This document shows positions 1,627 through 12,319 of a DNA stretch of 12,588 bases, piece after piece; position 1 is the stretch's first letter; each line of letters opens with the position of its first letter. The stretch is from IMG/VR virus record IMGVR_UViG_2713896773_000018, positions 1 to 12,588 of that record; one strand, 5' to 3'. The DNA is from a virus. Lineage: Duplodnaviria > Heunggongvirae > Uroviricota > Caudoviricetes. The notes under the pieces are model-generated. The model did not search any database, was not told the DNA's origin, and was given only the letters and a program-made list of their open reading frames with translations. The translations under genes were made by a program, and so were the position numbers.

Positions 1627-2531
1627 CGGATCACCCCATAGGCCCAGTCAGTGTTGTTGAAGTCCAGATCTGGCTTGACAGCGCGCTGCTCACCTCCGGC
1701 GTTACGCTGCATTGTCAGCTTGTCCCACTGCTTACGCAGGCTTTCGGGACTCAGGATGTTGGTCTGCCAGAAGTGGTGTTTGCTAGCCCAGTCATACAGC
1801 GCGCAGATGTCCTGGTGCGACCGGTTGTCTATCTGGCGCATCAGGCGAACAGTGTTAGACCAGGAGGTCATGTCCGGGGCTTTGCAGGTTGGGTTAATCA
1901 GCTTCACCCTGGAGGAAATCCACTTAGCTGTCTCGAGGTCTTCAGCAGAGCCCCACTTCGCACCGGATGGTGTGTAGACCGCAGCTTCAGGATGAGTTGA
2001 TAAAAATTTCTTCAGACGTGCGTCAGAGGATTCGTCAGAATTCTCGGACGAAGATCTTTTAATACTGTTCTTGTTCTTGTATTGGGTGTCTACCGTTTTC
2101 GGGAAGGTTATTCCTGATTTCGGGAAGGATTTTCCCGTTTTCGGGAATTTTCTTCCCGTTTCCGGTTTGTCTAAAATCCATGCTGAAAGGTCAGTGTTTA
2201 CACCGACGATTTTCATCATGCCCTGCTTCTGTGAAAAGATGATTTTGCGTTCTGCGAGAGACTTAAGCGCGTCCGATACATGCGTATCGCTCAGGCCCGT
2301 AAGCTCGGCAATAACCGTATTTGTCACGCGGTCCTGTTTCTTGTTCCAGCCGTAGGTAAGCCAGATCACCGCCTCAAAACATTGCCATTCCCGGCCTGAC
2401 AGTCTCAGGCGAGGCTTAAGCTGTTGGATCTCGTTAGCGACCTTGGTATACCCGTTCGACAGGTCGGCCATACGACCTCCCGGTTGTTCGGTTTTATTTG
2501 GGAAATTGATTATTTCAGCGGTGTTTGACAT
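1623..2531 (-). CDS. O: replication initiator O-like protein, 302 aa
   Basis: N-terminal region (MSNTAEIINFPNK...LTYGWNK...) resembles lambda O. Start ATG 2529-2531 with GGGAGTAAGT RBS; the upstream in-frame extension from the ORF track is rejected. A central repeated peptide FPKTGKSFPKSGITFPKT is encoded by the DNA iterons. Confidence 0.85.
   Translation of the reverse strand: MSNTAEIINFPNKTEQPGGRMADLSNGYTKVANEIQQLKPRLRLSGREWQCFEAVIWLTYGWNKKQDRVTNTVIAELTGLSDTHVSDALKSLAERKIIFSQKQGMMKIVGVNTDLSAWILDKPETGRKFPKTGKSFPKSGITFPKTVDTQYKNKNSIKRSSSENSDESSDARLKKFLSTHPEAAVYTPSGAKWGSAEDLETAKWISSRVKLINPTCKAPDMTSWSNTVRLMRQIDNRSHQDICALYDWASKHHFWQTNILSPESLRKQWDKLTMQRNAGGEQRAVKPDLDFNNTDWAYGVIR
2045..2160. other. 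phage origin of replication (ori-lambda-like): three 21-bp-spaced iterons with internal dyad symmetry plus an adjacent AT-rich stretch, inside the O gene
   Basis: TCGGGAA(GG) recurs at 2099, 2120 and 2141, exactly 21 bp apart, each followed by an inverted TTCC(C/T)G arm (CGGGAAGGATTTTCCCG, CGGGAATTTTCTTCCCG). The flanking 2045-2090 segment is AT-rich (cttttaatactgttcttgttcttgtatt). Lambda ori has the same layout within O. Confidence 0.7.
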
Positions 2532-2616
2532 ACTTACTCCCGTTACTTGCCGTAACACAGTGTGATAAGGGCCTTTGAAGTTACCGCTTCAAGGGCTTTT
2601 TCTTTTCTTGTGCCTC

Positions 2617-3159
2617 TCATATAACCCCCAGCATCGATGTAACCATCGTCATCAGCGGTCCTACCTGCTCCGGCATGAGGCGAAACAATGACGCTATGCC
2701 CTCGCTTACCTCCTTCATTTTCTGGTGCTCAGGCGCGTTCAGGAGAACGGCTTGCTTTGCTTCTGAACATTCCTTCATGGCAGATGCGATCAGCGACATG
2801 GTGTCGTTCTGCGGCGCCAGGCGTGTACGAAACTCAACAGGAAGAACAGCCATGATTGCCGGGGTCAGTTCTCTAACGTTCTCGCGGTACTGATCGGAGT
2901 CGAAGCGGTTATCCAGAAAGCGAAAAAGTTTCTGGCGCGCCCTGCTGATGTCTTCTGGGAAGCTGATGGCGGTACCGCCCTGCTCCCGGTATTCGTTGAT
3001 GATCAGCGCTGACACTACGTCCTGATTGTCCAGGGACGACGACCATGCACGGACCGCATCGCGGATTTTGTCGTGACCTGGCTCCGCCTTAGGTTGAGCG
3101 CGGTTTATCATCGCTCCCGGGTGTATTCCGGTATTGTGTTGATACGCAAGTGAATGCAT
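2617..3159 (-). CDS. CII-position regulatory protein, YdaT / CP76-type (180 aa)
   Basis: ATG at 3157-3159 with AAGGGA RBS. Lies between cro and O where lambda has cII, but is twice the size of CII. Segments IINEYREQGG... and RELTPAIMAVLPVEFRTRL resemble Rac prophage YdaT as I recall it. Family assignment is from memory and unverified. Confidence 0.5.
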   Translation of the reverse strand: MHSLAYQHNTGIHPGAMINRAQPKAEPGHDKIRDAVRAWSSSLDNQDVVSALIINEYREQGGTAISFPEDISRARQKLFRFLDNRFDSDQYRENVRELTPAIMAVLPVEFRTRLAPQNDTMSLIASAMKECSEAKQAVLLNAPEHQKMKEVSEGIASLFRLMPEQVGPLMTMVTSMLGVI

Positions 3160-3432: not shown

Positions 3433-3506
3433 ATCAACACCATGTTAATTCATGGCGTGGATTAAATCAACATTATGGTGATGGAAAAAATCCACATGTT
3501 GTTTAC
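3433..3506. promoter_or_regulatory. OR-like operator cluster: three 17-bp sites of form ATC[AC]ACA-N3-TGnTnAn between cro and cI
   Basis: Site A 3433-3449 ATCAACA CCA TGTTAAT; site B 3466-3482 ATCAACA TTA TGGTGAT; site C 3490-3506 ATCCACA TGT TGTTTAC. The same half-site recurs in the OL region at 5458-5541. Confidence 0.65.
3442..3470 (-). promoter_or_regulatory. candidate PR promoter for cro (minus strand): -35 TTGATT (3465-3470), -10 TAACAT (3442-3447), 17-bp spacer
   Basis: Hexamers read on the minus strand; they overlap operator sites A and B as PR overlaps OR1/OR2 in lambda. The -10 is a weak match, so the exact hexamers are uncertain. Confidence 0.4.
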
Positions 3507-3528
3507 CATGCATGGAGCGGAGGGTTTT

Positions 3529-4248
3529 ATGAGCAGCATTTCTGAAAGAATTAAATTTTTACTGGCAAGGGAAGGCTTGAAGCAGCGGGATTTGGCTGAG
3601 GCTTTGTCGACTAGCCCACAGACCGTTAACAACTGGATAAAAAGAGACGCGTTAAGTCGTGAGGCGGCGCAACAAATATCTGAAAAATTCGGTTATTCTC
3701 TTGACTGGTTATTAAATGGAGAGGGTTCTCCAAAGAAGGATCTGGAGAGCAACATCCCGCCAGAGTCTGAGTGGGGAACTGTCGACGCTTGGGACAAAAA
3801 TACCCCCCTACCTGACGATGAGGTGGAAGTACCGTTTCTGAAGGATATCGAGTTTGCGTGTGGTGATGGACGAGTACACGATGAGGATCACAACGGTTTT
3901 AAATTGCGCTTTTCAAAAGCAACGCTCCGTCGAGTTGGAGCTAACACAGATGGGTCTGGCATCCTGTGTTTCCCTGCTACTGGCGACAGCATGGAACCTG
4001 TGATACCGGATGGTACGACTGTAGCCGTCGATACGAACAACAAACGCATAGTTGATGGGAAACTGTATGCCATTGGTCAGACAGATGGCGGGAATGGTCA
4101 ACTCAAGCGCATTAAACAGCTGTATCGTAAGCCAGGTGGGAAGCTGATCATCCGCAGTTACAACAACGACTCCTACCCAGACGAAGAGGCTGATATTGAT
4201 GATGTCGAGATAATTGGCCGTCTCTTCTGGTACTCGGTATTGCTGTAG
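3529..4248 (+). CDS. cI: CI-like prophage repressor (XRE-type HTH + S24 LexA-like autopeptidase), 239 aa
   Basis: N-terminal HTH (RDLAEALSTSPQTVNNWIKRD). C-terminal S24 signatures GDSMEP (catalytic Ser) and GQLKRIKQL (Lys). The ATG at 3529 has a GGAGCGGAGGG RBS; the upstream ATGs at 3475/3481 lie inside operator site B and lack an RBS. Confidence 0.9.
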   Translation: MSSISERIKFLLAREGLKQRDLAEALSTSPQTVNNWIKRDALSREAAQQISEKFGYSLDWLLNGEGSPKKDLESNIPPESEWGTVDAWDKNTPLPDDEVEVPFLKDIEFACGDGRVHDEDHNGFKLRFSKATLRRVGANTDGSGILCFPATGDSMEPVIPDGTTVAVDTNNKRIVDGKLYAIGQTDGGNGQLKRIKQLYRKPGGKLIIRSYNNDSYPDEEADIDDVEIIGRLFWYSVLL

Positions 4249-4294
4249 CGGTGGCCTGATGAGACGTTTTGGTGAAAGCATATAAGGACTGTTG

Positions 4295-5161
4295 ATGGAA
4301 AACACTGGCTTACACGATGTTAATTTTTCACTTAGATATGACGGTTTGGATGCTGAAAAGCATGAGATTGAACTTTCTTCGCTCGGTGAATCGCTAAAGG
4401 GATTTTCGAAGATATTAGCTACAGCTGGAACCTTCGCATTAACCCAAAAGTACTCGCGAAGCACCTCAACTCAAGAGGTTAAAATTTACGCTACCGAAGC
4501 TAGGGCCAATTGTTTTTCTCTTGATACTATCATGAATTTTATCAGTCAGTCTCAATTGTTCTCAGGGTCTGCGGGGGCTATACTTGGCGCATTAGTGCCT
4601 TATATCTTCGCTAAAAACTCGCAGAAGAAAGAGGAAATGAAATACCTAAAAGAAGCACTTGAGAAGGCAATTGAGGCCCTCGGAAATAAAGATAAAGATA
4701 CCATCTCAGGTCTAATCTCAGTGATTGACAAGATGGCTAGTGAGTTACGCCCATCAGTTAGACAGGCAGTTTCCCCCATCGGTACCACCTGTAATAAGAT
4801 AAGCGTCACACCGGGGAATGGTTTCAAGCCTGCTGTAATTGATGAGCAAGATAAAGCAGTAATAGACCAGTTGGACGACGACGAAGTTCTTGGCTTAAGG
4901 GAGTATCGAATCTTCCTTACTGAATTCGACGCTCACCGAATGACCGCTAAAGTCATTATAGAAGGTGATGATTCAGATAAGCGCATCTCAGCACAAATAA
5001 GCGATCCATCTGCTTCAAAGGCAGACAACCCGTATCTCATTTCACTTAGTCGTTTTCTGTCAACGGGTCTAAGTCATGAGTCAGCGGTAAAAGTAACTGC
5101 CAAAGCAGCAGTTAGAAAAGGGGCTATTAGTAAACTTTTCATAGTTGATATTGAGCTTTAA
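4295..5161 (+). CDS. hypothetical protein (288 aa) in the rex/immunity-moron position; one short hydrophobic stretch, no recognised domain
   Basis: ATG at 4295 with AAGGA RBS (the ORF track starts at a TTG at 4292). Immediately downstream of and co-oriented with cI, followed by a terminator. AT-rich: about 38% GC in a hand-counted 130-nt sample. Hydrophobic stretch [17 protein letters not shown], then a K/E-rich helical segment. Confidence 0.8.
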
Positions 5162-5164
5162 CAA

Positions 5165-5187
5165 CCGGCCACCGCGCCGGGTTTTTT
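5165..5187 (+). terminator. rho-independent terminator ending the cI operon
   Basis: CCGGC-CACCG-GCCGG stem-loop followed by TTTTTT, directly after the stop at 5159-5161. Confidence 0.7.
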
Positions 5188-5191
5188 GTGC

Positions 5192-5401
5192 CTACTTCAC
5201 AGCTTTACTACCCTTCCTGACTATCTCAGCTGCATCCCTGTTCACACCCTTACCTATCACGTTTCCCGTTTCCTTCCGGTACCGTTCCAGCTTGTCGATG
5301 ATGTTTTGCTGGGTCATAGGTAAATCTGCCAGTGACAACTCCATGACCGCCCGCCCCATGGCGTGAACCATCATGTTCACTCTTTCTTCATCCAAGTCCA
5401 T
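5192..5401 (-). CDS. hypothetical small protein (69 aa), convergent with the cI operon
   Basis: Strong RBS AAAGGAGTGGGTA before the ATG at 5399-5401. Its upstream region is the AT-rich operator-bearing segment 5402-5500. No family recognised. Confidence 0.6.
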   Translation of the reverse strand: MDLDEERVNMMVHAMGRAVMELSLADLPMTQQNIIDKLERYRKETGNVIGKGVNRDAAEIVRKGSKAVK

Positions 5402-5457
5402 TACCCACTCCTTTTTGATGTTTTTTTCAGCATATCACTTATGCCACCAAAAAATAA

Positions 5458-5542
5458 ATCAACATAAAAATCAACAGTAAACGATTAAATCAACAAAATA
5501 AATCCACAAGGTGTTGACCTACAAATCCACATGATGTTTAAT
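5458..5542 (+). promoter_or_regulatory. OL/PL-like region: operator half-site array plus candidate PL (-35 TTGACC 5514-5519, -10 TTTAAT 5537-5542, 17-bp spacer)
   Basis: ATCAACA at 5458, 5470 and 5489; full sites ATCCACA AGG TGTTGAC (5502-5518) and ATCCACA TGA TGTTTAA (5525-5541). The promoter hexamers sit inside these two sites, as in lambda OL1/OL2. Confidence 0.6.
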
Positions 5543-5588
5543 TACTCCATCGAAACGAAACATCGACAGCTGAGCGAAGTTAGCCAGC

Positions 5589-5619
5589 GGCGGACAGCAA
5601 GTCGCCTGCTTTTTAACAA
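5589..5619 (+). promoter_or_regulatory. candidate nutL-like antitermination site: hairpin (5589-5606) followed by boxA-like TGCTTTTTAACAA (5607-5619)
   Basis: TGCTTTTTAACAA differs at one position from the E. coli rrn boxA core TGCTCTTTAACAA as I recall it. It lies about 40-70 nt downstream of the predicted PL start, preceded by a GGCGG/UCGCC stem. Confidence 0.4.
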
Positions 5620-5843
5620 CATGCAAAGTCGGAACAGCACTCAGTAATCCTGTTTAGACCCCAACGTACAAATTCGGCGCAGCACCGGGCGCGATCCGGT
5701 CGGTGTGAGGCTACCCCCTCGCGAGAGCGATAAAGGCGTGGGAACGGGCAACACTGGCTGGATGAGAGGTGCGAAGCGCAAACAGATTTATTCCAGTCCA
5801 TTCGAAGTTGAGTGGGCTGGGCTGAATCACAAGAGGATTTTTT

Positions 5844-6056
5844 ATGACTCAGACATACATTCCGGCGTGTTTAAGAGACCTTCCTAAGAAGCGTCAGAAG
5901 CCACGCAAACAGGCGATTAAAGAAGCGCAAGTGGAAGTTCTGAATAAGGCAATCGCATCGATAAAAGACGATATGCGTGCGTTCAAAACAGAAGAGCAGC
6001 GTCGCGGTCATTACCAGGCGATCAGCACACTCTCACAGATTCGTGATGAGTTGTAG
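5844..6056 (+). CDS. small basic protein (70 aa), first gene of the PL operon (N position); function unassigned
   Basis: Strong RBS AAGAGGA with a 6-nt spacer. Basic N-terminal segment LPKKRQKPRKQAIK. No clear arginine-rich motif of the lambda N type, so an antiterminator role is positional inference only. Confidence 0.6.
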   Translation: MTQTYIPACLRDLPKKRQKPRKQAIKEAQVEVLNKAIASIKDDMRAFKTEEQRRGHYQAISTLSQIRDEL

Positions 6057-6079
6057 AAGCTGATAGATAAAGCATTTCT

Positions 6080-6097
6080 CCCGCATCAGCGGGTAAC
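6080..6097 (+). repeat. copy 1 of a 17-bp direct repeat CCGCATCAGCGGGTAAC (hairpin CCCGC-ATCA-GCGGG)
   Basis: Identical 17-mer at 6081-6097 and 6303-6319, each just upstream of a gene's RBS. Confidence 0.8.
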
Positions 6098-6113
6098 TAA
6101 GTGGAGAGTACGT

Positions 6114-6302
6114 ATGCACAAGTGTCAATTCTGTGGGTACTTTCTGGCATCTGAAGAGATGCAGAGAATATCTGTAAACATGGTTGGCAGGCCTTACAAC
6201 ATCTGCATTCCATGCTCAGAAAAGTACAAAAAGAAAGGCCTGTGGGATTCGGCAAAAAACGATATCGACTGGAAATCACTTCCATGCGTCGATGAGACAT
6301 AA
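6114..6302 (+). CDS. small zinc-ribbon-like protein (62 aa; CxxC...CxxC)
   Basis: RBS GGAGAG with a 5-nt spacer. Cys pairs CQFC and CIPC about 24 residues apart. AT-rich. Flanked by the 17-bp direct repeats. Confidence 0.6.
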   Translation: MHKCQFCGYFLASEEMQRISVNMVGRPYNICIPCSEKYKKKGLWDSAKNDIDWKSLPCVDET

Positions 6303-6319
6303 CCGCATCAGCGGGTAAC
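6303..6319 (+). repeat. copy 2 of the 17-bp direct repeat CCGCATCAGCGGGTAAC
   Basis: Exact match to 6081-6097; begins one nucleotide after the stop of the 6114-6302 gene. Confidence 0.8.
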
Positions 6320-6335
6320 GACAGAGGGTAAGTCA

Positions 6336-7004
6336 ATGATTCGTCTTAACAACGAAATTAAAAATCAGCTATGCCATAACCTGCTTCTCGCATCCCCATT
6401 GTTTGAGAAAGCGAAAGCTGCGGTTAATGAGAGGGCGAAAATTGTTGAAGAAATTCGACAGGCATTGCTCAAGCAGGAAAACACTAGCGATGAGCAAATA
6501 ACTAAGGCTCGGGAAGATTTCAAAGATAACTCCTTCATCAAGATGCAGGTCGGCGCTAAAACTGCAACTTTAAAGGTCATTATTAATGGTGAGTATCACG
6601 AATTAGCCAGGAACGGTTTGGATCATCGCTATCGCCACCGTGGAAAACATATTGGTAAGCACGATCTTGAAAGCGACCTGTTCTTCGGAGCTTCCTTCGC
6701 GCCTGTAATTGATTCGGGTTTCGTTCCTGAAAGTTACAGCACGCTGAAGAAAGTTGGAAAATTACACGACCGACTCACTGAATCGACGGTAACCATCAAC
6801 GTTCTTTACGATGAAGTTGATGCCTTCCAATTGCAGGTTAAAGGTGCTCTAACCAAAGTCTCAACTGTTAAAAAACTGGCTGAGATGTGGCCTGAGGCAG
6901 TGCCATATTTGCCTGAGGTGGAACGCCGTGAAGCGACCAGCACCGCACTTGCCATTCCCGTTGAAACGCTAAACGCCCTTTGCGGCATACCAAAGAATGA
7001 ATGA
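6336..7004 (+). CDS. hypothetical protein (222 aa), AT-rich accessory gene in the ral/sieB-equivalent position
   Basis: RBS GAGGG. A long ORF with no internal stops in AT-rich DNA, followed by a strong terminator. No family recognised. Confidence 0.8.
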   Translation: MIRLNNEIKNQLCHNLLLASPLFEKAKAAVNERAKIVEEIRQALLKQENTSDEQITKAREDFKDNSFIKMQVGAKTATLKVIINGEYHELARNGLDHRYRHRGKHIGKHDLESDLFFGASFAPVIDSGFVPESYSTLKKVGKLHDRLTESTVTINVLYDEVDAFQLQVKGALTKVSTVKKLAEMWPEAVPYLPEVERREATSTALAIPVETLNALCGIPKNE

Positions 7005-7026
7005 CCCGCTCCGGCGGGTTTTTTAT
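7005..7026 (+). terminator. rho-independent terminator
   Basis: CCCGC-TCCG-GCGGG stem-loop followed by TTTTTTAT, immediately after the TGA at 7002-7004. Confidence 0.8.
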
Positions 7027-7165
7027 CGGCCATACATAGGCAGATTTTCGAGTCTGCCCATTTATGACAACCGGCGGCCATCCACCGCCCATTGAAACAC
7101 TGAATAAATGCGTTGAAGTCTTGTATTAACCGTTCGGCGGCGCGGCCTTAAGCGCGGAGATGATT

Positions 7166-7675
7166 ATGACTCTTATCGAATTGACCAAAAAGAAAATGGC
7201 AATTGAAGCCGAACTGGCTCAGTTGAAGGCGAAGTTTGTTGATGACACCTCACGCATCGGTAAAGAGCTGATTGCCGTGTCTGAAGGTATCAACCAGGCC
7301 AATAAAGGCCTAACGGTTGAGATGGTTAGGCATGGCATGACGATCATTAACTTCGGTGACCCGAAACAAAGCATGGAGCGGCGCGGGTGTGTTGAAGACG
7401 CGATTAACGACATTGCGTCGGGGTTCAACCGTCTGAGCGAGCGTTATTTTGGCACAAAAAACTACGCCCACTGGAGCGATCAGCGTGAAGACCATCGCTA
7501 TGGATATGGCCCTAAACACGGCTCTATCTGCTTCAAGATCGGTTTAACTGGCACCGCACTTAATAAGCTGGCAAGCGGCGGGTTGAGTGATTACGACGCT
7601 GAATGCGCTATCTACTGCCTGATGAACATTGACGCCATCAATGCGGCAAACGACAAAGCCCGGGAGGCATCATGA
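7166..7675 (+). CDS. hypothetical phage protein (169 aa)
   Basis: GGAG at 7156-7159 favours the ATG at 7166 over the one at 7160. The stop overlaps the next ORF's start (ATGA). Confidence 0.7.
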   Translation: MTLIELTKKKMAIEAELAQLKAKFVDDTSRIGKELIAVSEGINQANKGLTVEMVRHGMTIINFGDPKQSMERRGCVEDAINDIASGFNRLSERYFGTKNYAHWSDQREDHRYGYGPKHGSICFKIGLTGTALNKLASGGLSDYDAECAIYCLMNIDAINAANDKAREAS

Positions 7676-7830
7676 CAGTCACCCATAACGGAAAGAAGTA
7701 CACCGCCAAAAAGCTCAACGATAACGAGTGGCAGCTGACGTCCGTATCGGCACCGCGTGAAAAGCTGACGCTTAACCGCTGGCATATGAAGCTGGCTGGC
7801 CTCCTGGAACAGGTTGAGGTGAAGGTATGA
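7672..7830 (+). CDS. small hypothetical protein (52 aa; MTVTHNGKKYTAKKLNDNEWQLTSVSAPREKLTLNRWHMKLAGLLEQVEVKV), not in the supplied ORF track
   Basis: Strong RBS GGGAGG 5 nt upstream of the ATG at 7672. ATGA overlaps with both the upstream and downstream genes suggest translational coupling. Confidence 0.55.
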   Translation: MTVTHNGKKYTAKKLNDNEWQLTSVSAPREKLTLNRWHMKLAGLLEQVEVKV

Positions 7831-8333
7831 TGCGAAAGCACAAGTTGCCAAGTGCTGAGGAGATAGATTCCTTGCTGGATTACAACCCTGAAACCGGAGT
7901 ATTTACGTGGAAAGTGACGAAATCAGGATGGGTTGTAAAGGGGCGGCCTGCTGGTTCAAAAAACAATAATGGCTATCTCCGAGTTGGTATTGGAAGAAGG
8001 CACTACTTCCTTTCTCGAATCGCATTTTTCTTATGCACCGGGGAATCACCTGAAGAAGTAGACCATATCAATGGTGACAGAACAGATAACAGGGCGTGCA
8101 ACTTAAGAGCCGCAAGCCGTCATGAAAACTGCCTCAATAAGTCGGTAAGAAGCGACAGCAGGACTGGTGTAAAGGGCGTCTCATGGCGACCGGATGTTAA
8201 AAAATGGTCTGCACGATCAACTGATTCATCGGGGAAGAGAGTGTTTTTAGGTTACTACCGCACCATCAGAGATGCGGTGGCTGTCCTTAATGATTTTCGG
8301 AGAGAACAGCATGGTGAGTTTGCAAAAAATTAG
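7827..8333 (+). CDS. HNH homing endonuclease with C-terminal AP2-type DNA-binding domain (168 aa)
   Basis: HNH motif EEVDHINGDRTDNRACNLRAASRHENCLN. AP2-like segment GVKGVSWRPDVKKWSARST...KRVFLGYY. RBS GAGGTGAAGG. Confidence 0.85.
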   Translation: MMRKHKLPSAEEIDSLLDYNPETGVFTWKVTKSGWVVKGRPAGSKNNNGYLRVGIGRRHYFLSRIAFFLCTGESPEEVDHINGDRTDNRACNLRAASRHENCLNKSVRSDSRTGVKGVSWRPDVKKWSARSTDSSGKRVFLGYYRTIRDAVAVLNDFRREQHGEFAKN

Positions 8334-8544
8334 CAGCAACTTGCACTACGGCACCACCCCGCTCATTCGCCAGTGCGTCACGCCAGGCATGATGGCATTG
8401 CATGAAGGCCGCACCTATCGCGTCTCAGCAGTCATTCAGGAGCGCAAATGGGTGTACCTGCACACCGATGCAGAAATTATCCGCCTCAGTGACTGCGTGA
8501 TTGACGTCCTTCTGGACGGTCACGGAAACCCTATCCAGCACTAA
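8311..8544 (+). CDS. hypothetical protein (77 aa), start overlapping the 3' end of the HNH gene by 23 nt
   Basis: RBS GGAGAG with a 6-nt spacer before the ATG at 8311; the ORF-track start at 8272 has no RBS. Confidence 0.5.
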   Translation: MVSLQKISSNLHYGTTPLIRQCVTPGMMALHEGRTYRVSAVIQERKWVYLHTDAEIIRLSDCVIDVLLDGHGNPIQH

Positions 8545-8613
8545 CCACCCTATTCATCCGATCGGCCTGGCTTCTGCGGGCGGGATCTGCACATCCAAAT
8601 TTCAGGAGAAACC

Positions 8614-9582
8614 ATGAGCGAAGTAACGGACTTAACTGTCATCGAAATCAAGCCGGAACAGGCCCCAGTGCTTTACGTAGCGGGCGGCCTTGACGCGTAC
8701 CTTGAGCAAATCCGCCAGGCTGTAAACGAAGTGCCGGACCTGTCCACGAAGAAAGGCCGTGACCGTGTCGCCTCTCTGGCGGCGCAGGTATCCCGCAGCA
8801 AGACAGCAATCGAAAAGCCGGGCCGTGAATACCTTAAGCGCCTGAAAGAGGCTGTGCGTCCGGCTGAGGCCGAAATTAAGCGTTTCGTTGATGCTTGCGA
8901 CGAGCTACGTGATGCCACCCGCCGCCCACTCACCGAATGGGAAGCCGAGCAGGAGCGCATCAAGGCTGAAGAAGCCATGAATGCGCTGCACGCCGAAGCG
9001 CTGGAGATGAACGAAGAGTTTGACCGCCAGCGCGCCGCTCAAATCGAAGCGGACCACGAAATGGCTCTGCTGATGAATGAGAAGTTTGACCGTGACCGCG
9101 AAGAGCAGCGCCGCCTGGCAGAACAGGCTCAGCGCGAACGTGACGAACGACTGAAGCAGGACGCGGCAGAACAAGCCCGCCGCGATGCCGAAGCGATGCA
9201 CAAAGCAGAGATTGAAGCCGCAGCGCGCCGTGAAGCTGAAGAGAAAGCACGTGCAGAGCTGGCTGAACGCCAGCGCGTCGAAGCGGAACAGCGTGCAGCT
9301 CGCGAGAAGCAGGAAGCAATCGCAGAAGAAAAACGCAAAGCGCAGGAAGAAGCAGATCGCATCAAGCGCGAAGCTGAAGCGAAAGAGAAAGCCCGTCTGG
9401 CCGAAGAGCAGCGCAAAGTTGAAGAAGAAGCGCGCCGCGCCGCAGACAAAGAGCACCGCCGCACCGTCAACCGTCGCGTCATCGCCGACCTTATAGCTCA
9501 GGGCATCCCCGAAGAATTCGCGCAGAAAGCACTGCTGGCGATCGCTGGCGGCAAAGTGCAGGACGCGCACATCAAATATTGA
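8614..9582 (+). CDS. hypothetical protein (322 aa) with a long Ala/Glu/Arg/Lys-rich low-complexity central region
   Basis: RBS AGGAG. Globular-looking N-terminus of about 100 aa, then about 180 aa of ERKA-rich repeats (e.g. AEEKRKAQEEADRIKREAEAKEKARLAEEQRKVEEEARRA), then a short C-terminal tail. Located immediately upstream of gam. Confidence 0.75.
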   Translation: MSEVTDLTVIEIKPEQAPVLYVAGGLDAYLEQIRQAVNEVPDLSTKKGRDRVASLAAQVSRSKTAIEKPGREYLKRLKEAVRPAEAEIKRFVDACDELRDATRRPLTEWEAEQERIKAEEAMNALHAEALEMNEEFDRQRAAQIEADHEMALLMNEKFDRDREEQRRLAEQAQRERDERLKQDAAEQARRDAEAMHKAEIEAAARREAEEKARAELAERQRVEAEQRAAREKQEAIAEEKRKAQEEADRIKREAEAKEKARLAEEQRKVEEEARRAADKEHRRTVNRRVIADLIAQGIPEEFAQKALLAIAGGKVQDAHIKY

Positions 9583-9589
9583 GGCAACC

Positions 9590-9871
9590 ATGAACGCATA
9601 CCTCACTTACGACCGAATCGAAGATCGGCGCTGGGTTGAGCAGCAGCTCACCGACGAGAAGGAGAAGTGGATCGACAACCGGGCGAAAGAACTGATCGCC
9701 ATGTTCCCGAAATATGCTCTGCAAATGAGTAGCCTGTTTCTCCCAAAAGAAGCGCAAATGGCACTAGTCGGTGAAAAGGCAGAGGAAGCCTATAACGACT
9801 ATGTCACACGCATCTGTTACGACCGCGCCGAAGAAGAGTGGGATCGCCTTCATCCAACCTGCCCATTTTAA
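9590..9871 (+). CDS. gam: Gam-like host-nuclease (RecBCD) inhibitor, 93 aa
   Basis: N-terminus MNAYLTYDRIEDRRW... resembles the short form of lambda Gam (MNAYYIQDRLEAQSW...) from memory. Position directly upstream of the annealing-protein and exo genes. RBS GAGG. Confidence 0.55.
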   Translation: MNAYLTYDRIEDRRWVEQQLTDEKEKWIDNRAKELIAMFPKYALQMSSLFLPKEAQMALVGEKAEEAYNDYVTRICYDRAEEEWDRLHPTCPF

Positions 9872-9880
9872 GGAGGGGCT

Positions 9881-10798
9881 ATGAGCTTAACCCTTGTTGA
9901 TTTCGTCAAACAACAGGAGCCGCTTTTCATTAAGGCGGCCACAGACGAGCGGATGGTGTGGGCGAAGGAAAGCCAGTTCGCCATCCAGCTATTTCAGAAC
10001 AATGACTACCTCGCGAAAGTCGCATTCCAGAACCAGACCAGCACGCAGAACGCAATAATCAACGTTGCGGCTATCGGTATTTCGCTAAACCCAGCTCAGA
10101 AGCTGGCTTACCTGGTTCCGCGTAAAGGGGCAGTTTGCCTCGACATCAGTTACATGGGCCTGATGCACATTGCGCAGCAGTCTGGCGCCATTAAATGGTG
10201 TCAGTCGGCAATTGTTCGCAGAAACGACCAGTTCCGCCGCGAAGGGCTCGATAAGCCGCCGGTCCATATCTACAACGACTTCGATACCGAAGAGCAGCGC
10301 GGGGACATCGTAGGGGCATATGTAACGGTAAAAACTGACGATGGTGATTACCTCACCCATACGATGCGCATCGATGCCATTTACTCCATCCGTGACCGGT
10401 CTGAAGCATGGAAGAAGTACAAATCTGACAACAGTAAAAAGTGTCCATGGGTCACTGACGAAGAACAGATGATCCTCAAAACAGTCGTGAAGCAGGCAGC
10501 AAAATACTGGCCTCGCCGTGAGCGCCTGGACGCCGCCATAGACCACGTTAACACCGAGGGCGAAGAAGGTATCAACTTTACAGCAGAGCGTCAGCCTGAG
10601 CGCGATATAACGCCGCTTAGCGAAACCACGCAGAAAGAGATAAACGACCTGCTTGTCTCTTTGGATAAGACATGGGATGACGATCTTCTCCCTCTCTGCT
10701 CACGCATTTTCAAACGCCCTATCACGCAGCCAGCAGACCTGACAGAGCTTGAAGGTGTTAAAGCTCTCGGGTTCCTCAGACAAAAGGCGGCAGCATGA
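9881..10798 (+). CDS. single-strand annealing protein: RecT-like core with a Red-beta (Bet)-like C-terminal tail, 305 aa
   Basis: Perfect RBS AGGAGG. The C-terminal ~70 aa ([13 protein letters not shown]...[16 protein letters not shown]...[12 protein letters not shown]) closely match the lambda Bet C-terminus as I recall it. The N-terminal ~230 aa look RecT-like rather than Bet-like. Stop overlaps the exo start (ATGA). Confidence 0.8.
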
Positions 10799-11475
10799 CA
10801 CCAGAAATTATCCTGGCCCGGACCGGCATTGACGTAACCACTATCCAGCAGGGCGACGAGGCGTGGCACCGGCTGCGCCTCGGCGTTATCACCGCATCTG
10901 AAGTTCACAACGTCATTTCCAAGCCCAGATCTGGGAAGAAGTGGACAGACATGAAAATTTCCTACTTCCACACCCTACTCGCCGAGGTATGCACCGGCGT
11001 AGCGCCAGAGGTTAACGCCAAGGCGCTGGCCTGGGGGAAGCAGTATGAAGAAGACGCCCGCACCCTCTTCGAGTTCACCACCGACGTGAAAGTCACGGAG
11101 TCTCCGATCTTGTTCCGTGACGAGAGCATGCGCACCGCGTGCTCACCTGACGGCCTTTGCAGTAACGGATTCGGCCTCGAATTGAAATGCCCGTTCACCT
11201 CCCGCGACTTCATGAAATTCCGCCTTGGCGGTTTCGAAGCCATCAAGTCTGCCTACATGGCCCAGGTGCAGTTCAGCATGTGGGTGACCGGGAAAGACGC
11301 CTGGTTCTTTGCCAACTACGACCCGCGCATGAAGCGCGAAGGTATTCACCACGTCGTCGTTGAGCGGGATCCACAGTACATGACCAATTTCAACGAAATG
11401 GTGCCGGAGTTCATCGAGAAGATGGACGAGGCGCTGGCGGAGATCGGCTTCAGGTTCGGGGAGCAGTGGAAATGA
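10795..11475 (+). CDS. exo: lambda-type 5'-3' exonuclease (Red-alpha / YqaJ family), 226 aa
   Basis: Near-collinear, high-identity match to lambda Exo from memory ([14 protein letters not shown]...[24 protein letters not shown]...[31 protein letters not shown]...[10 protein letters not shown]). Confidence 0.93.
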
Positions 11476-11518: not shown

Positions 11519-12097
11519 ATGAAACGCCTGGACGATGTTTGCGGCAAAGCAGGATGGCGCAATGAATACCGCGATATTCCCAACAACGGCGGAGTTGAAT
11601 GCGGCATATCAATCAAGATTGATTCCGAATGGGTAACCAAATGGGATGCTGCTGAAAACACGCAGGTAGAAGCCGTCAAAGGTGGTCGTTCAGGTGCAAT
11701 GAAGCGTGCTGCCGTTCAGTGGGGAATAGGTCGGTATCTGTATAACCTTGAGGAAGGTTTCGCACAAACATCTCTCGATAAAAAGCAGGGATGGCACAGG
11801 GCAAAACTCAAGGGTGGAACAGGATTTTACTGGCTCCCTCCATCGCTGCCGGGATGGGCAATCCCAGCATCAGATAACAAACCATCACCAGAAAATACCA
11901 ACCATAAATCTCCATCGGTTGACTGCGAGCAAATCCTGAAAGACTTCAGCGATTATGCGTCAACAGAAACTGATAAGAAAAAACTCATCGAGCGTTATCA
12001 GCGTGACTGGCAATTAATGGCTGGCAACGAGGAGGCGCAGGCTAAATGCGTTCAGGTAATGAACATCAGAGTTAACGAACTAAAACAGGCGGCATAA
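11519..12097 (+). CDS. Erf/Rad52-superfamily-like protein, apparently N-terminally shortened (192 aa)
   Basis: C-terminal ~55 aa (EQILKDFSDYASTETDKKKLIERYQRDWQLMAGNEEAQAKCVQVMNIRVNELKQAA) closely match the P22 Erf C-terminus as I recall it. Rad52-like motif AMKRAAVQWGIGRYLY at residues ~60-75 leaves too little upstream sequence for a complete annealing domain. Weak RBS. Confidence 0.55.
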   Translation: MKRLDDVCGKAGWRNEYRDIPNNGGVECGISIKIDSEWVTKWDAAENTQVEAVKGGRSGAMKRAAVQWGIGRYLYNLEEGFAQTSLDKKQGWHRAKLKGGTGFYWLPPSLPGWAIPASDNKPSPENTNHKSPSVDCEQILKDFSDYASTETDKKKLIERYQRDWQLMAGNEEAQAKCVQVMNIRVNELKQAA

Positions 12098-12319
12098 ATG
12101 GCAAGCAGAGGCGTAAATAAGGTGATCATTATTGGTCGCCTTGGGCATGATCCAGAAATCAGAGATTCATTCAACAAGGTTGCAAAGCGCGTTCCGGCAT
12201 TCAAAGGAATCCTCAACGAATGGGATTCACTCGTTGCTCTGTTGAAGTCTGAAATGAAGATACACGGAAACAAAGCACCAGAGACTTACAGAAGAATCAG
12301 CGAGCTACGCAAGGACTAA
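12098..12319 (+). CDS. 73-aa ORF whose first 22 codons are an ssb 5' remnant (MASRGVNKVIIIGRLGHDPEIR) fused to unrelated sequence
   Basis: The first ~66 nt resemble the start of E. coli ssb at protein and DNA level, from memory. After codon 22 no frame continues SSB-like sequence, so this is a recombination junction rather than a frameshift. Whether the product is functional is unknown. Confidence 0.45.
   Translation: MASRGVNKVIIIGRLGHDPEIRDSFNKVAKRVPAFKGILNEWDSLVALLKSEMKIHGNKAPETYRRISELRKD

Follow-up and report, generated by a model that had tools for sequence, protein, structure and literature searches.

The window analyzed here, all 12,588 nucleotides (nt) of IMG/VR record IMGVR_UViG_2713896773_000018 (Caudoviricetes), covers the early-left region of a lambdoid prophage together with its immunity and replication functions, as judged by its open reading frames (ORFs) and Pfam profiles. 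In the early-left operon, a gene for an HNH-AP2 endonuclease is lodged between orf52, a small ORF of 52 amino acids, and kil, a homolog of the KilR family of cell division inhibitors. We consider it likely that positions 7832-8343 are a free-standing homing endonuclease cassette specific for a 4 nt slot between the ATGAT start of kil and the sequence CACTACGG. A first-pass annotation of this DNA had proposed a free-standing HNH-AP2 selfish insertion spreading by homing, and three kinds of comparative evidence, all read from sequence, speak strongly in favor of homing: i) empty alleles of the same site; ii) a chimeric structure of the window itself; and iii) very low diversity of the cassette. 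The cassette is probably active or recently active. Elements of this kind are already known, and this one is a clean example.

The prophage is phi80-like, and positions 4672-10830 are 100% identical to contig LDYI01000066.1 (assembly GCA_001309485.1). As the first-pass annotation had noted, the HNH gene lies upstream of a recombination module, with GamL, RecT, and YqaJ exonuclease following. The features that bear on the cassette are:

7672-7830, + strand: orf52, 52 amino acids, homolog of phi80 gp43, left flank of the insertion slot
7827-8333, + strand: HNH-AP2 endonuclease ORF, 168 amino acids
7832-8343, + strand: inserted cassette, 512 nt, delimited by alignments to empty alleles
7832-8721, + strand: putative minimal gene conversion patch (maximal extent 7809-8768)
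8055-8135, + strand: HNH beta-beta-alpha catalytic core (residues 77-103; DH 79-80, N92, N101), placed by alignment to I-HmuI
8163-8321, + strand: C-terminal AP2-fold DNA-binding domain (residues 113-165; three strands, then a helix)
8299-8313, + strand: replacement Shine-Dalgarno sequence and ATG for kil (GGAGAG at 8299-8304, ATG at 8311), inside the 3′ end of the HNH ORF
8311-8544, + strand: kil/KilR homolog, 77 amino acids
8614-9582: agt/mog-like ORF, 322 amino acids, homolog of phi80 Agt/Mog, recombination module
9590-9871: GamL, recombination module
9881-10798: RecT, recombination module
10795-11475: YqaJ exonuclease, recombination module

Empty and occupied alleles of a single site

In phage phi80 and many prophages orf52 is ATGA-coupled directly to kil, and the empty junction reads ...GGTATGAT-NNNN-CACTACGG..., where NNNN is CAAC, GCAC, CAAT, GTCG, GCAT, TCAC, GTCT, or TTCA; in occupied alleles, the cassette replaces these 4 variable nt (ATGAT-NNNN-CACTACGG). 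Comparison with HNH-less relatives, as the first-pass annotation had recommended, thus places the insertion site at a 4 nt slot and reveals empty alleles to be the majority. Specifically, i) phage phi80 is empty; ii) the flanks occur in 127 of 5426 complete Escherichia coli genomes, and no match to the HNH DNA was found in any of the 5426; iii) 22 of the 24 contigs encoding the exact orf52 protein of the window are empty, and the other 2 occupied; iv) all 7 matches in species-representative genomes (one Citrobacter and five Enterobacter species) are empty; and v) in a kil-based IMG/VR sample, the best 80 of 295 kil-encoding stretches, 71 are empty, 8 occupied, and 1 other. Since empty alleles predominate, the gene is not universally present at this position among relatives, which is the observation that the annotation had named as fatal to its proposal.

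The HNH gene is a minority allele (roughly 4-10%), and an HNH 30-mer occurs in 12 contigs across all of IMG/VR. The exact HNH protein is found in 551 blocks of the assembly collection, and the names of its protein cluster are mainly those of the Enterobacter cloacae complex. Wherever it was seen, the gene lies between orf52 and kil (10 of 10 diverse places shown, 12 of 12 IMG/VR contigs, and 8 of 8 occupied loci in the kil-based sample). We conclude that this is a precise, one-site presence/absence polymorphism among otherwise homologous genomes, and that the slot belongs to the early-left operon of phi80-like prophages, whose hosts are Enterobacter, E. coli, and related bacteria.

We were unable to find direct repeats at the cassette ends or a target-site duplication, and the only candidate for terminal repeats, a lone 8 nt inverted match (CAAGTTGC / GCAACTTG), was rejected as no more frequent than expected by chance. 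The dip in G+C content (45-49% versus 52-58%) is modest and not decisive.

A second HNH-AP2 lineage, also 168 amino acids long and 48% identical to the first, holds the same slot in Enterobacter hormaechei (L043, positions 2502-3008, and L044, positions 1-491). It too starts at ATGAT and ends directly before CACTACGG, and it brings its own kil restart (MAKSISSY) with an 8 nt overlap. This second cassette is rare, with no match in the IMG/VR scan. The two lineages could reflect either one ancient cassette that diversified in place, or related endonucleases that invaded independently. Other HNH_3/AP2 genes, about 36-37% identical to that of the window, are found elsewhere in related prophages, farther downstream in their early-left operons (L003, 12431-12967; L005, 12937-13539; and L002, 6254-6748), and these operons appear to have been colonized repeatedly by the HNH-AP2 endonuclease family.

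A chimeric prophage

Three isogenic but empty prophages (L015, L019, and L021) serve as the comparison. To the left of the cassette they match the window without a single difference over 1763 nt (6069-7831); on the right, 21 of the 22 difference columns are confined to 8382-8721, and only 1 falls in 8722-11338 (P about 2e-23 for the clustering). The figure of 21 is a gapped count; an ungapped count of 34 on the right is inflated by a 1 nt indel. The window is identical to the occupied prophage L040 over 7809-8768 only, and diverges from it on both sides. A match to the L019 type outside, and to L040 inside, identifies the window as an L019-type backbone with an L040-type patch. Besides the cassette, the patch (890-960 nt) takes in no more than 23 nt on the left and 378-425 nt on the right; the donor right flank covers kil, the spacer, and the first 110 nt or so of the agt/mog-like ORF. 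L040 itself reveals a similar patch when compared with the empty prophages L013 and L001: the differences fall at 8352-8575, and the next 1 kb or so is nearly identical. We conclude from these alignments that the cassette was evidently copied in by gene conversion, and that flanking markers were co-converted with it.

An almost invariant cassette on many backgrounds

Copies of the cassette (more than 30) differ by 0-1 nt, or by 15 in a second haplotype. Nucleotide diversity (pi) and segregating sites among 14 distinct occupied haplotypes were:

orf52: pi 0.105, segregating 51/155
cassette: pi 0.005, segregating 18/517
cassette without the second haplotype: pi 0.001, segregating 3/517
kil: pi 0.053, segregating 45/201

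The cassette is therefore 10-20 times less diverse than its immediate flanks (Fisher P about 2e-24 for the contrast), and flank polymorphisms come within 1-7 nt of its left end and 9 nt of its right end. Occupied loci have 10 left-neighbor and 9 right-neighbor module types. No flanking single-nucleotide polymorphism (SNP) tied to occupancy was found among 17 occupied and 67 empty haplotypes, nor were there "immunity" SNPs in the occupied flanks (best Fisher P 3.5e-3 among about 100 variable sites). A cassette that is nearly invariant on many unrelated backgrounds has spread horizontally.

The HNH-AP2 protein

The N-terminal part of the 168 amino acid protein matches Pfam HNH_3 (PF13392) over residues 60-101 (41 bits against a cut-off of 24.8 bits; E = 1.5e-10). 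In an alignment of 61 sequences (the protein and 60 homologs), D79, H80, N92, L93, R94, and N101 never vary, and all are found here; of these, D79, H80, N92, and N101 align with the DH...N...N of I-HmuI. An AlphaFold model built from the 61-sequence alignment is confident (predicted local distance difference test score, pLDDT, 93.9); it has the beta-beta-alpha fold of HNH/His-Me finger nucleases and, at the C-terminus, a three-stranded sheet packed on a helix that can be superposed on solved AP2 domains. The HNH active site is intact, and the N-terminal and catalytic fold resembles that of I-HmuI. Many homologs carry both Pfam domains, the AP2 profile (PF00847) being present in many at 35-48% identity, and the combination of HNH and AP2 is a recognized homing endonuclease architecture (PMC10448857).

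Differences between the cassette haplotypes are dominated by synonymous changes (12:3 and 9:6). A single metagenomic copy has homopolymer indels; in all other copies the ORF is unbroken. Mostly synonymous variation in an intact ORF points to a functional protein. The broken copy (L041, 4001-4459, from JGI metagenome 3300045647) occupies the same site and has three homopolymer-run indels that disrupt the HNH frame; what had looked like an 85%-identical variant (P0002/L041) was rejected as the same DNA with these three indels, reflecting either decay or long-read error.

The lineage is isolated, the next relatives being at most 48% identical and the closest phage proteins 45% identical over their full length. 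The nearest non-self homolog (P0003, 48%) was set aside: it is found in an unrelated phage context beside genes for DNA polymerase A and an SNF2 helicase, and is therefore uninformative about the orf52/kil site.

Fit of the cassette to the operon

The first-pass annotation had the coordinates of both overlaps right, namely an ATGA coupling of the HNH gene to the 52 amino acid ORF and a 23 nt overlap of its 3′ end by the next ORF, but did not identify the latter. By homology this ORF is kil/KilR, of the cell division inhibitor family: the DNA is 96.4% identical to phi80 kil, and precomputed annotations record KilR (PF27398) on an identical 77 amino acid protein, although our own Pfam profile scan of the window proteins gave no match for it. 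Records in RefSeq and UniRef commonly name Kil/KilR homologs "cell division protein FtsZ", apparently a wrong label, passed on from record to record, for a protein that inhibits FtsZ.

On the left, the ATG of the HNH ORF at 7827 overlaps the orf52 stop codon (TGA, 7828-7830), and this ATG (ATGATG) is the same one that serves kil in empty alleles. By using the ATG of kil, the HNH ORF inherits the translational coupling to orf52. On the right, the last 45 nt of the cassette give kil a new GGAGAG, the ATG at 8311 after a 6 nt spacer, and 11 codons (MVSLQKISSNL) that stand in for Met and two variable residues (MIN, MMH, or MMS) of empty alleles; the resulting overlap with the HNH ORF is 8311-8333. 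Gene callers choose ATG 8311 as the start of kil in all occupied loci and the ATGA start in empty ones. Neither overlap is a matter of chance: all occupied loci, of which there are more than 30, have the two overlaps unchanged, and the ATGA coupling goes back to the ancestral junction of orf52 and kil.

The replaced N-terminus of Kil is probably tolerated, by analogy with Rac KilR, in which the N-terminal 6 residues are largely dispensable and the C-terminus is essential (PMC12482147). The HNH gene is free-standing and has a start and a stop codon of its own, and translation of kil begins anew in a different frame. No promoter or terminator was found inside the cassette. A group I or II intron or other RNA element around the HNH gene was also considered, but Rfam gave no match at E≤1 over 7400-8800.

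These features suggest, tentatively and with somewhat less than even confidence on our part, an "operon-compatible" homing element: one that takes over the ATGA-coupled start of its target, provides from within the 3′ end of its own coding sequence a new ribosome-binding site and start codon as well as the N-terminal codons, and could thereby invade a coupled gene pair without polar damage. That two lineages only 48% identical have this design and the 4 nt slot in common would then imply long-term cycling or competition of homing endonucleases at a single site in temperate phi80-like prophages, with repair by the phage's own GamL, RecT, and exonuclease, encoded in the same transcript.

How the cassette may spread

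Free-standing HNH homing endonucleases spread by gene conversion and take flanking DNA with them (PMC2790892, PMC2988022), and from these enzymes and I-HmuI we infer the following steps. In a cell where one active phage or prophage has the HNH gene and another lacks it, the endonuclease would be expressed from pL; it would bind the orf52/kil junction of the empty allele, with the kil 5′ segment CACTACGGNACCACCCCGCTCATTCG, which is invariant and lies to the right of the slot, as its most likely contact, and nick or cut near the slot; the break would be processed by the phage's own GamL, exonuclease, and RecT, which are encoded just downstream and are plausible repair factors by analogy; and repair from the occupied allele would copy the cassette together with flanking DNA of variable and often short length, biased to the right. 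Recognition to the right of the slot is suggested because the kil 5′ segment is constant in all alleles seen, because the left flank can differ right up to the ATG (L004), and because both mapped tracts run rightwards. The occupied allele would be protected by the cassette splitting the site, a mode of protection favored by the lack of protective SNPs.

Several points weigh against homing. The target site and cleavage are inferred by analogy, and since the 4 nt of the slot vary in empty alleles, the enzyme would have to tolerate variation there. The AP2 profile match of the window protein itself is below the Pfam gathering score (19.1 bits against a cut-off of 33.3 bits; E = 0.0016). Many homing endonucleases target essential genes, and kil is non-essential. 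At an occupancy of only 4-10% or so, no sweep by the element is under way. The search that yielded loci L003-L012 required the exact HNH protein, and that for L029-L040 an exact 30-mer, so that the low diversity of the cassette is partly ascertained and non-synonymous variation suppressed; synonymous sites and the kil-based sample are free of this retrieval bias, and give the same picture. Finally, two prophages resident in the same cell would yield the same chimera as the window through a double crossover, be it by ordinary homologous recombination or with RecT.

Alternative explanations

The last point belongs to the main rival, passive shuffling by ordinary recombination, in which the cassette is a passenger (moron) moved only by general or RecT/Red recombination through its conserved orf52 and kil flanks and the HNH protein is inactive or otherwise employed. 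The chimera is formally such a double crossover, these phages have their own recombinases and show extreme mosaicism whether the HNH gene is there or not, and the low occupancy fits as well. We nonetheless regard a passive passenger as unlikely, because the cassette is so much less diverse than DNA 1-9 nt away and in linkage equilibrium with its flanks; shuffling alone would need many very short, precisely placed exchanges centered on the cassette, as a break there would yield. Nor does passivity sit well with intact catalytic residues, mostly synonymous variation, and two diverged HNH lineages in the same slot.

The endonuclease could instead be domesticated and not primarily selfish, benefiting the phage by excluding or degrading competing phi80-like genomes, or by making breaks for GamL, RecT, and the exonuclease. 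It lies directly upstream of the recombination module and is co-transcribed with it, the ORF is under purifying selection, and T-even phages provide a known case of marker exclusion by homing endonucleases (PMC2988022). On the other hand, about 90% of related prophages do without the HNH gene, and it has no fixed module partner, being found with RecT/YqaJ, Rad52/SSB, and RNase T-like modules; exclusion of competitors would moreover be a corollary of homing and not an alternative to it. Domestication thus strikes us as quite improbable.

That the HNH gene was ancestral at the slot and the empty alleles arose by repeated precise deletion, as presence/absence polymorphism alone (being without direction) would allow, is very improbable and already effectively refuted: empty alleles are far more diverse (orf52 pi 0.20) than the nearly monomorphic cassette and are taxonomically wider (E. 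coli, Citrobacter, Salmonella, Superficieibacter, Enterobacter, and phi80), there are no flanking direct repeats to yield an ATGAT-NNNN-CACTACGG product, and deletion cannot produce empty counterparts that are identical outside the patch but have another kil allele inside it.

Relation to known systems

The intron-encoded HNH nicking homing endonuclease I-HmuI of Bacillus phage SPO1 (PDB 1U3E) is 21% identical to the window protein; I-HmuI resides inside a group I intron, whereas the HNH gene of the window is free-standing and translated by coupling, and its C-terminal DNA-binding module has an AP2 fold, unlike I-HmuI. The Mob proteins of T-even phages (MobE and others; the Seg proteins are GIY-YIG analogs) are closer in habit: like the window gene, mob genes are free-standing, lie between conserved genes, and are present or absent among relatives, and the HNH_3 catalytic domain is common to both. 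T-even Mob and Seg genes move with flanking DNA by unidirectional gene conversion (PMC2790892, PMC2988022). Mob proteins, however, combine HNH_3 with a zinc finger, not AP2 (PMC10448857), and belong to virulent phages; the window gene belongs to temperate phi80-like prophages, has no promoter that we could find, and is spliced into a translationally coupled pair. The same arrangement of N-terminal HNH and C-terminal AP2 characterizes the HNH-AP2 family of phages, cyanobacteria, and protists (PMC10448857), examples being ICP1 gp59/gp209 ("IPA-HNH") and the "HNH homing endonuclease" of Salmonella phage Seszw; we did not find the site of the window lineage, the orf52/kil junction, described.

The early-left region of phi80 has the same order as the window (pL, N, gp43 [the orf52 homolog], kil, agt/mog, gamL, and a RecT-like gene), but gp43 is ATGA-coupled straight to kil (ATGATCAACCACTACGG). 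Lacking the cassette, phi80 offers a natural empty-site substrate.

Much of the work on homing endonucleases has been done in virulent phages (T4, T5, SPO1, and ICP1), and much less in temperate lambdoid prophages. The locus described here leaves current concepts unchanged, but it is a natural experiment, with an exact empty site in a classical phage (phi80), an isogenic pair of empty and occupied prophages with a mapped tract, and a second lineage in the same slot. It could be used to gauge the share of homing in prophage gene flow in Enterobacter and E. coli, and could show how such genes are inserted harmlessly into translationally coupled operons.

Mosaicism and neighboring genes

The first-pass annotation had also suggested that the HNH gene may have promoted the mosaicism seen downstream, for which we find no support. 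Whether empty or occupied, the prophages have orf52 and kil as a small conserved block amid highly variable modules: unrelated neighbors of at least 25 types occur on the left and 13 on the right, and the 85 empty loci are spread among them like the occupied ones. Since empty loci are equally mosaic, mosaic junctions exist without the HNH gene, and nothing points to a contribution from it. Nuclease genes at exchange boundaries have been documented in other phages (PMC10448857).

Further features of the window are:

3475-4248, + strand: cI-like S24 repressor
4292-5161, + strand: DUF7946+DUF7947 protein, 289 amino acids, directly after the repressor
6336-7004, + strand: Nmad5 (nucleotide modification associated domain 5) protein (E = 6e-31), early-left operon
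minus strand: Cro/YdaS, YdaT, O, and P genes

The DUF7946+DUF7947 protein is encoded at a position where lambdoid phages often carry exclusion or defense genes, and relatives have unrelated genes in this slot, including YafO toxin, KilA-N/BstA, and P63C. The Nmad5 gene is also variable, being present in some relatives and absent from others. The 322 amino acid ORF at 8614-9582 is very charged (E/K/R/A-rich) and matches phi80 agt/"Mog" in position and size; the phi80 gene is annotated as an antitoxin or modifier of the adjacently encoded Gam-like protein.

Directly after the RecT/YqaJ module, 11519-12097 encodes a Rad52/Sak-like protein that lacks the first 37 or so profile positions, and 12098-12319 is a 73 amino acid ORF whose first 25 or so residues are an SSB N-terminus. 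Together (11519-12319) these look like what is left of a Rad52+SSB recombination module of a type that L007 and L010 carry intact, and their arrangement resembles a mosaic scar. In the left part of the window, about 310 nt (5759-6068) cannot be aligned with the otherwise isogenic empty prophages L015 and L019, in which about 160 nt take its place. Nearly identical prophages differ here by a further small replacement, one unrelated to the HNH gene.

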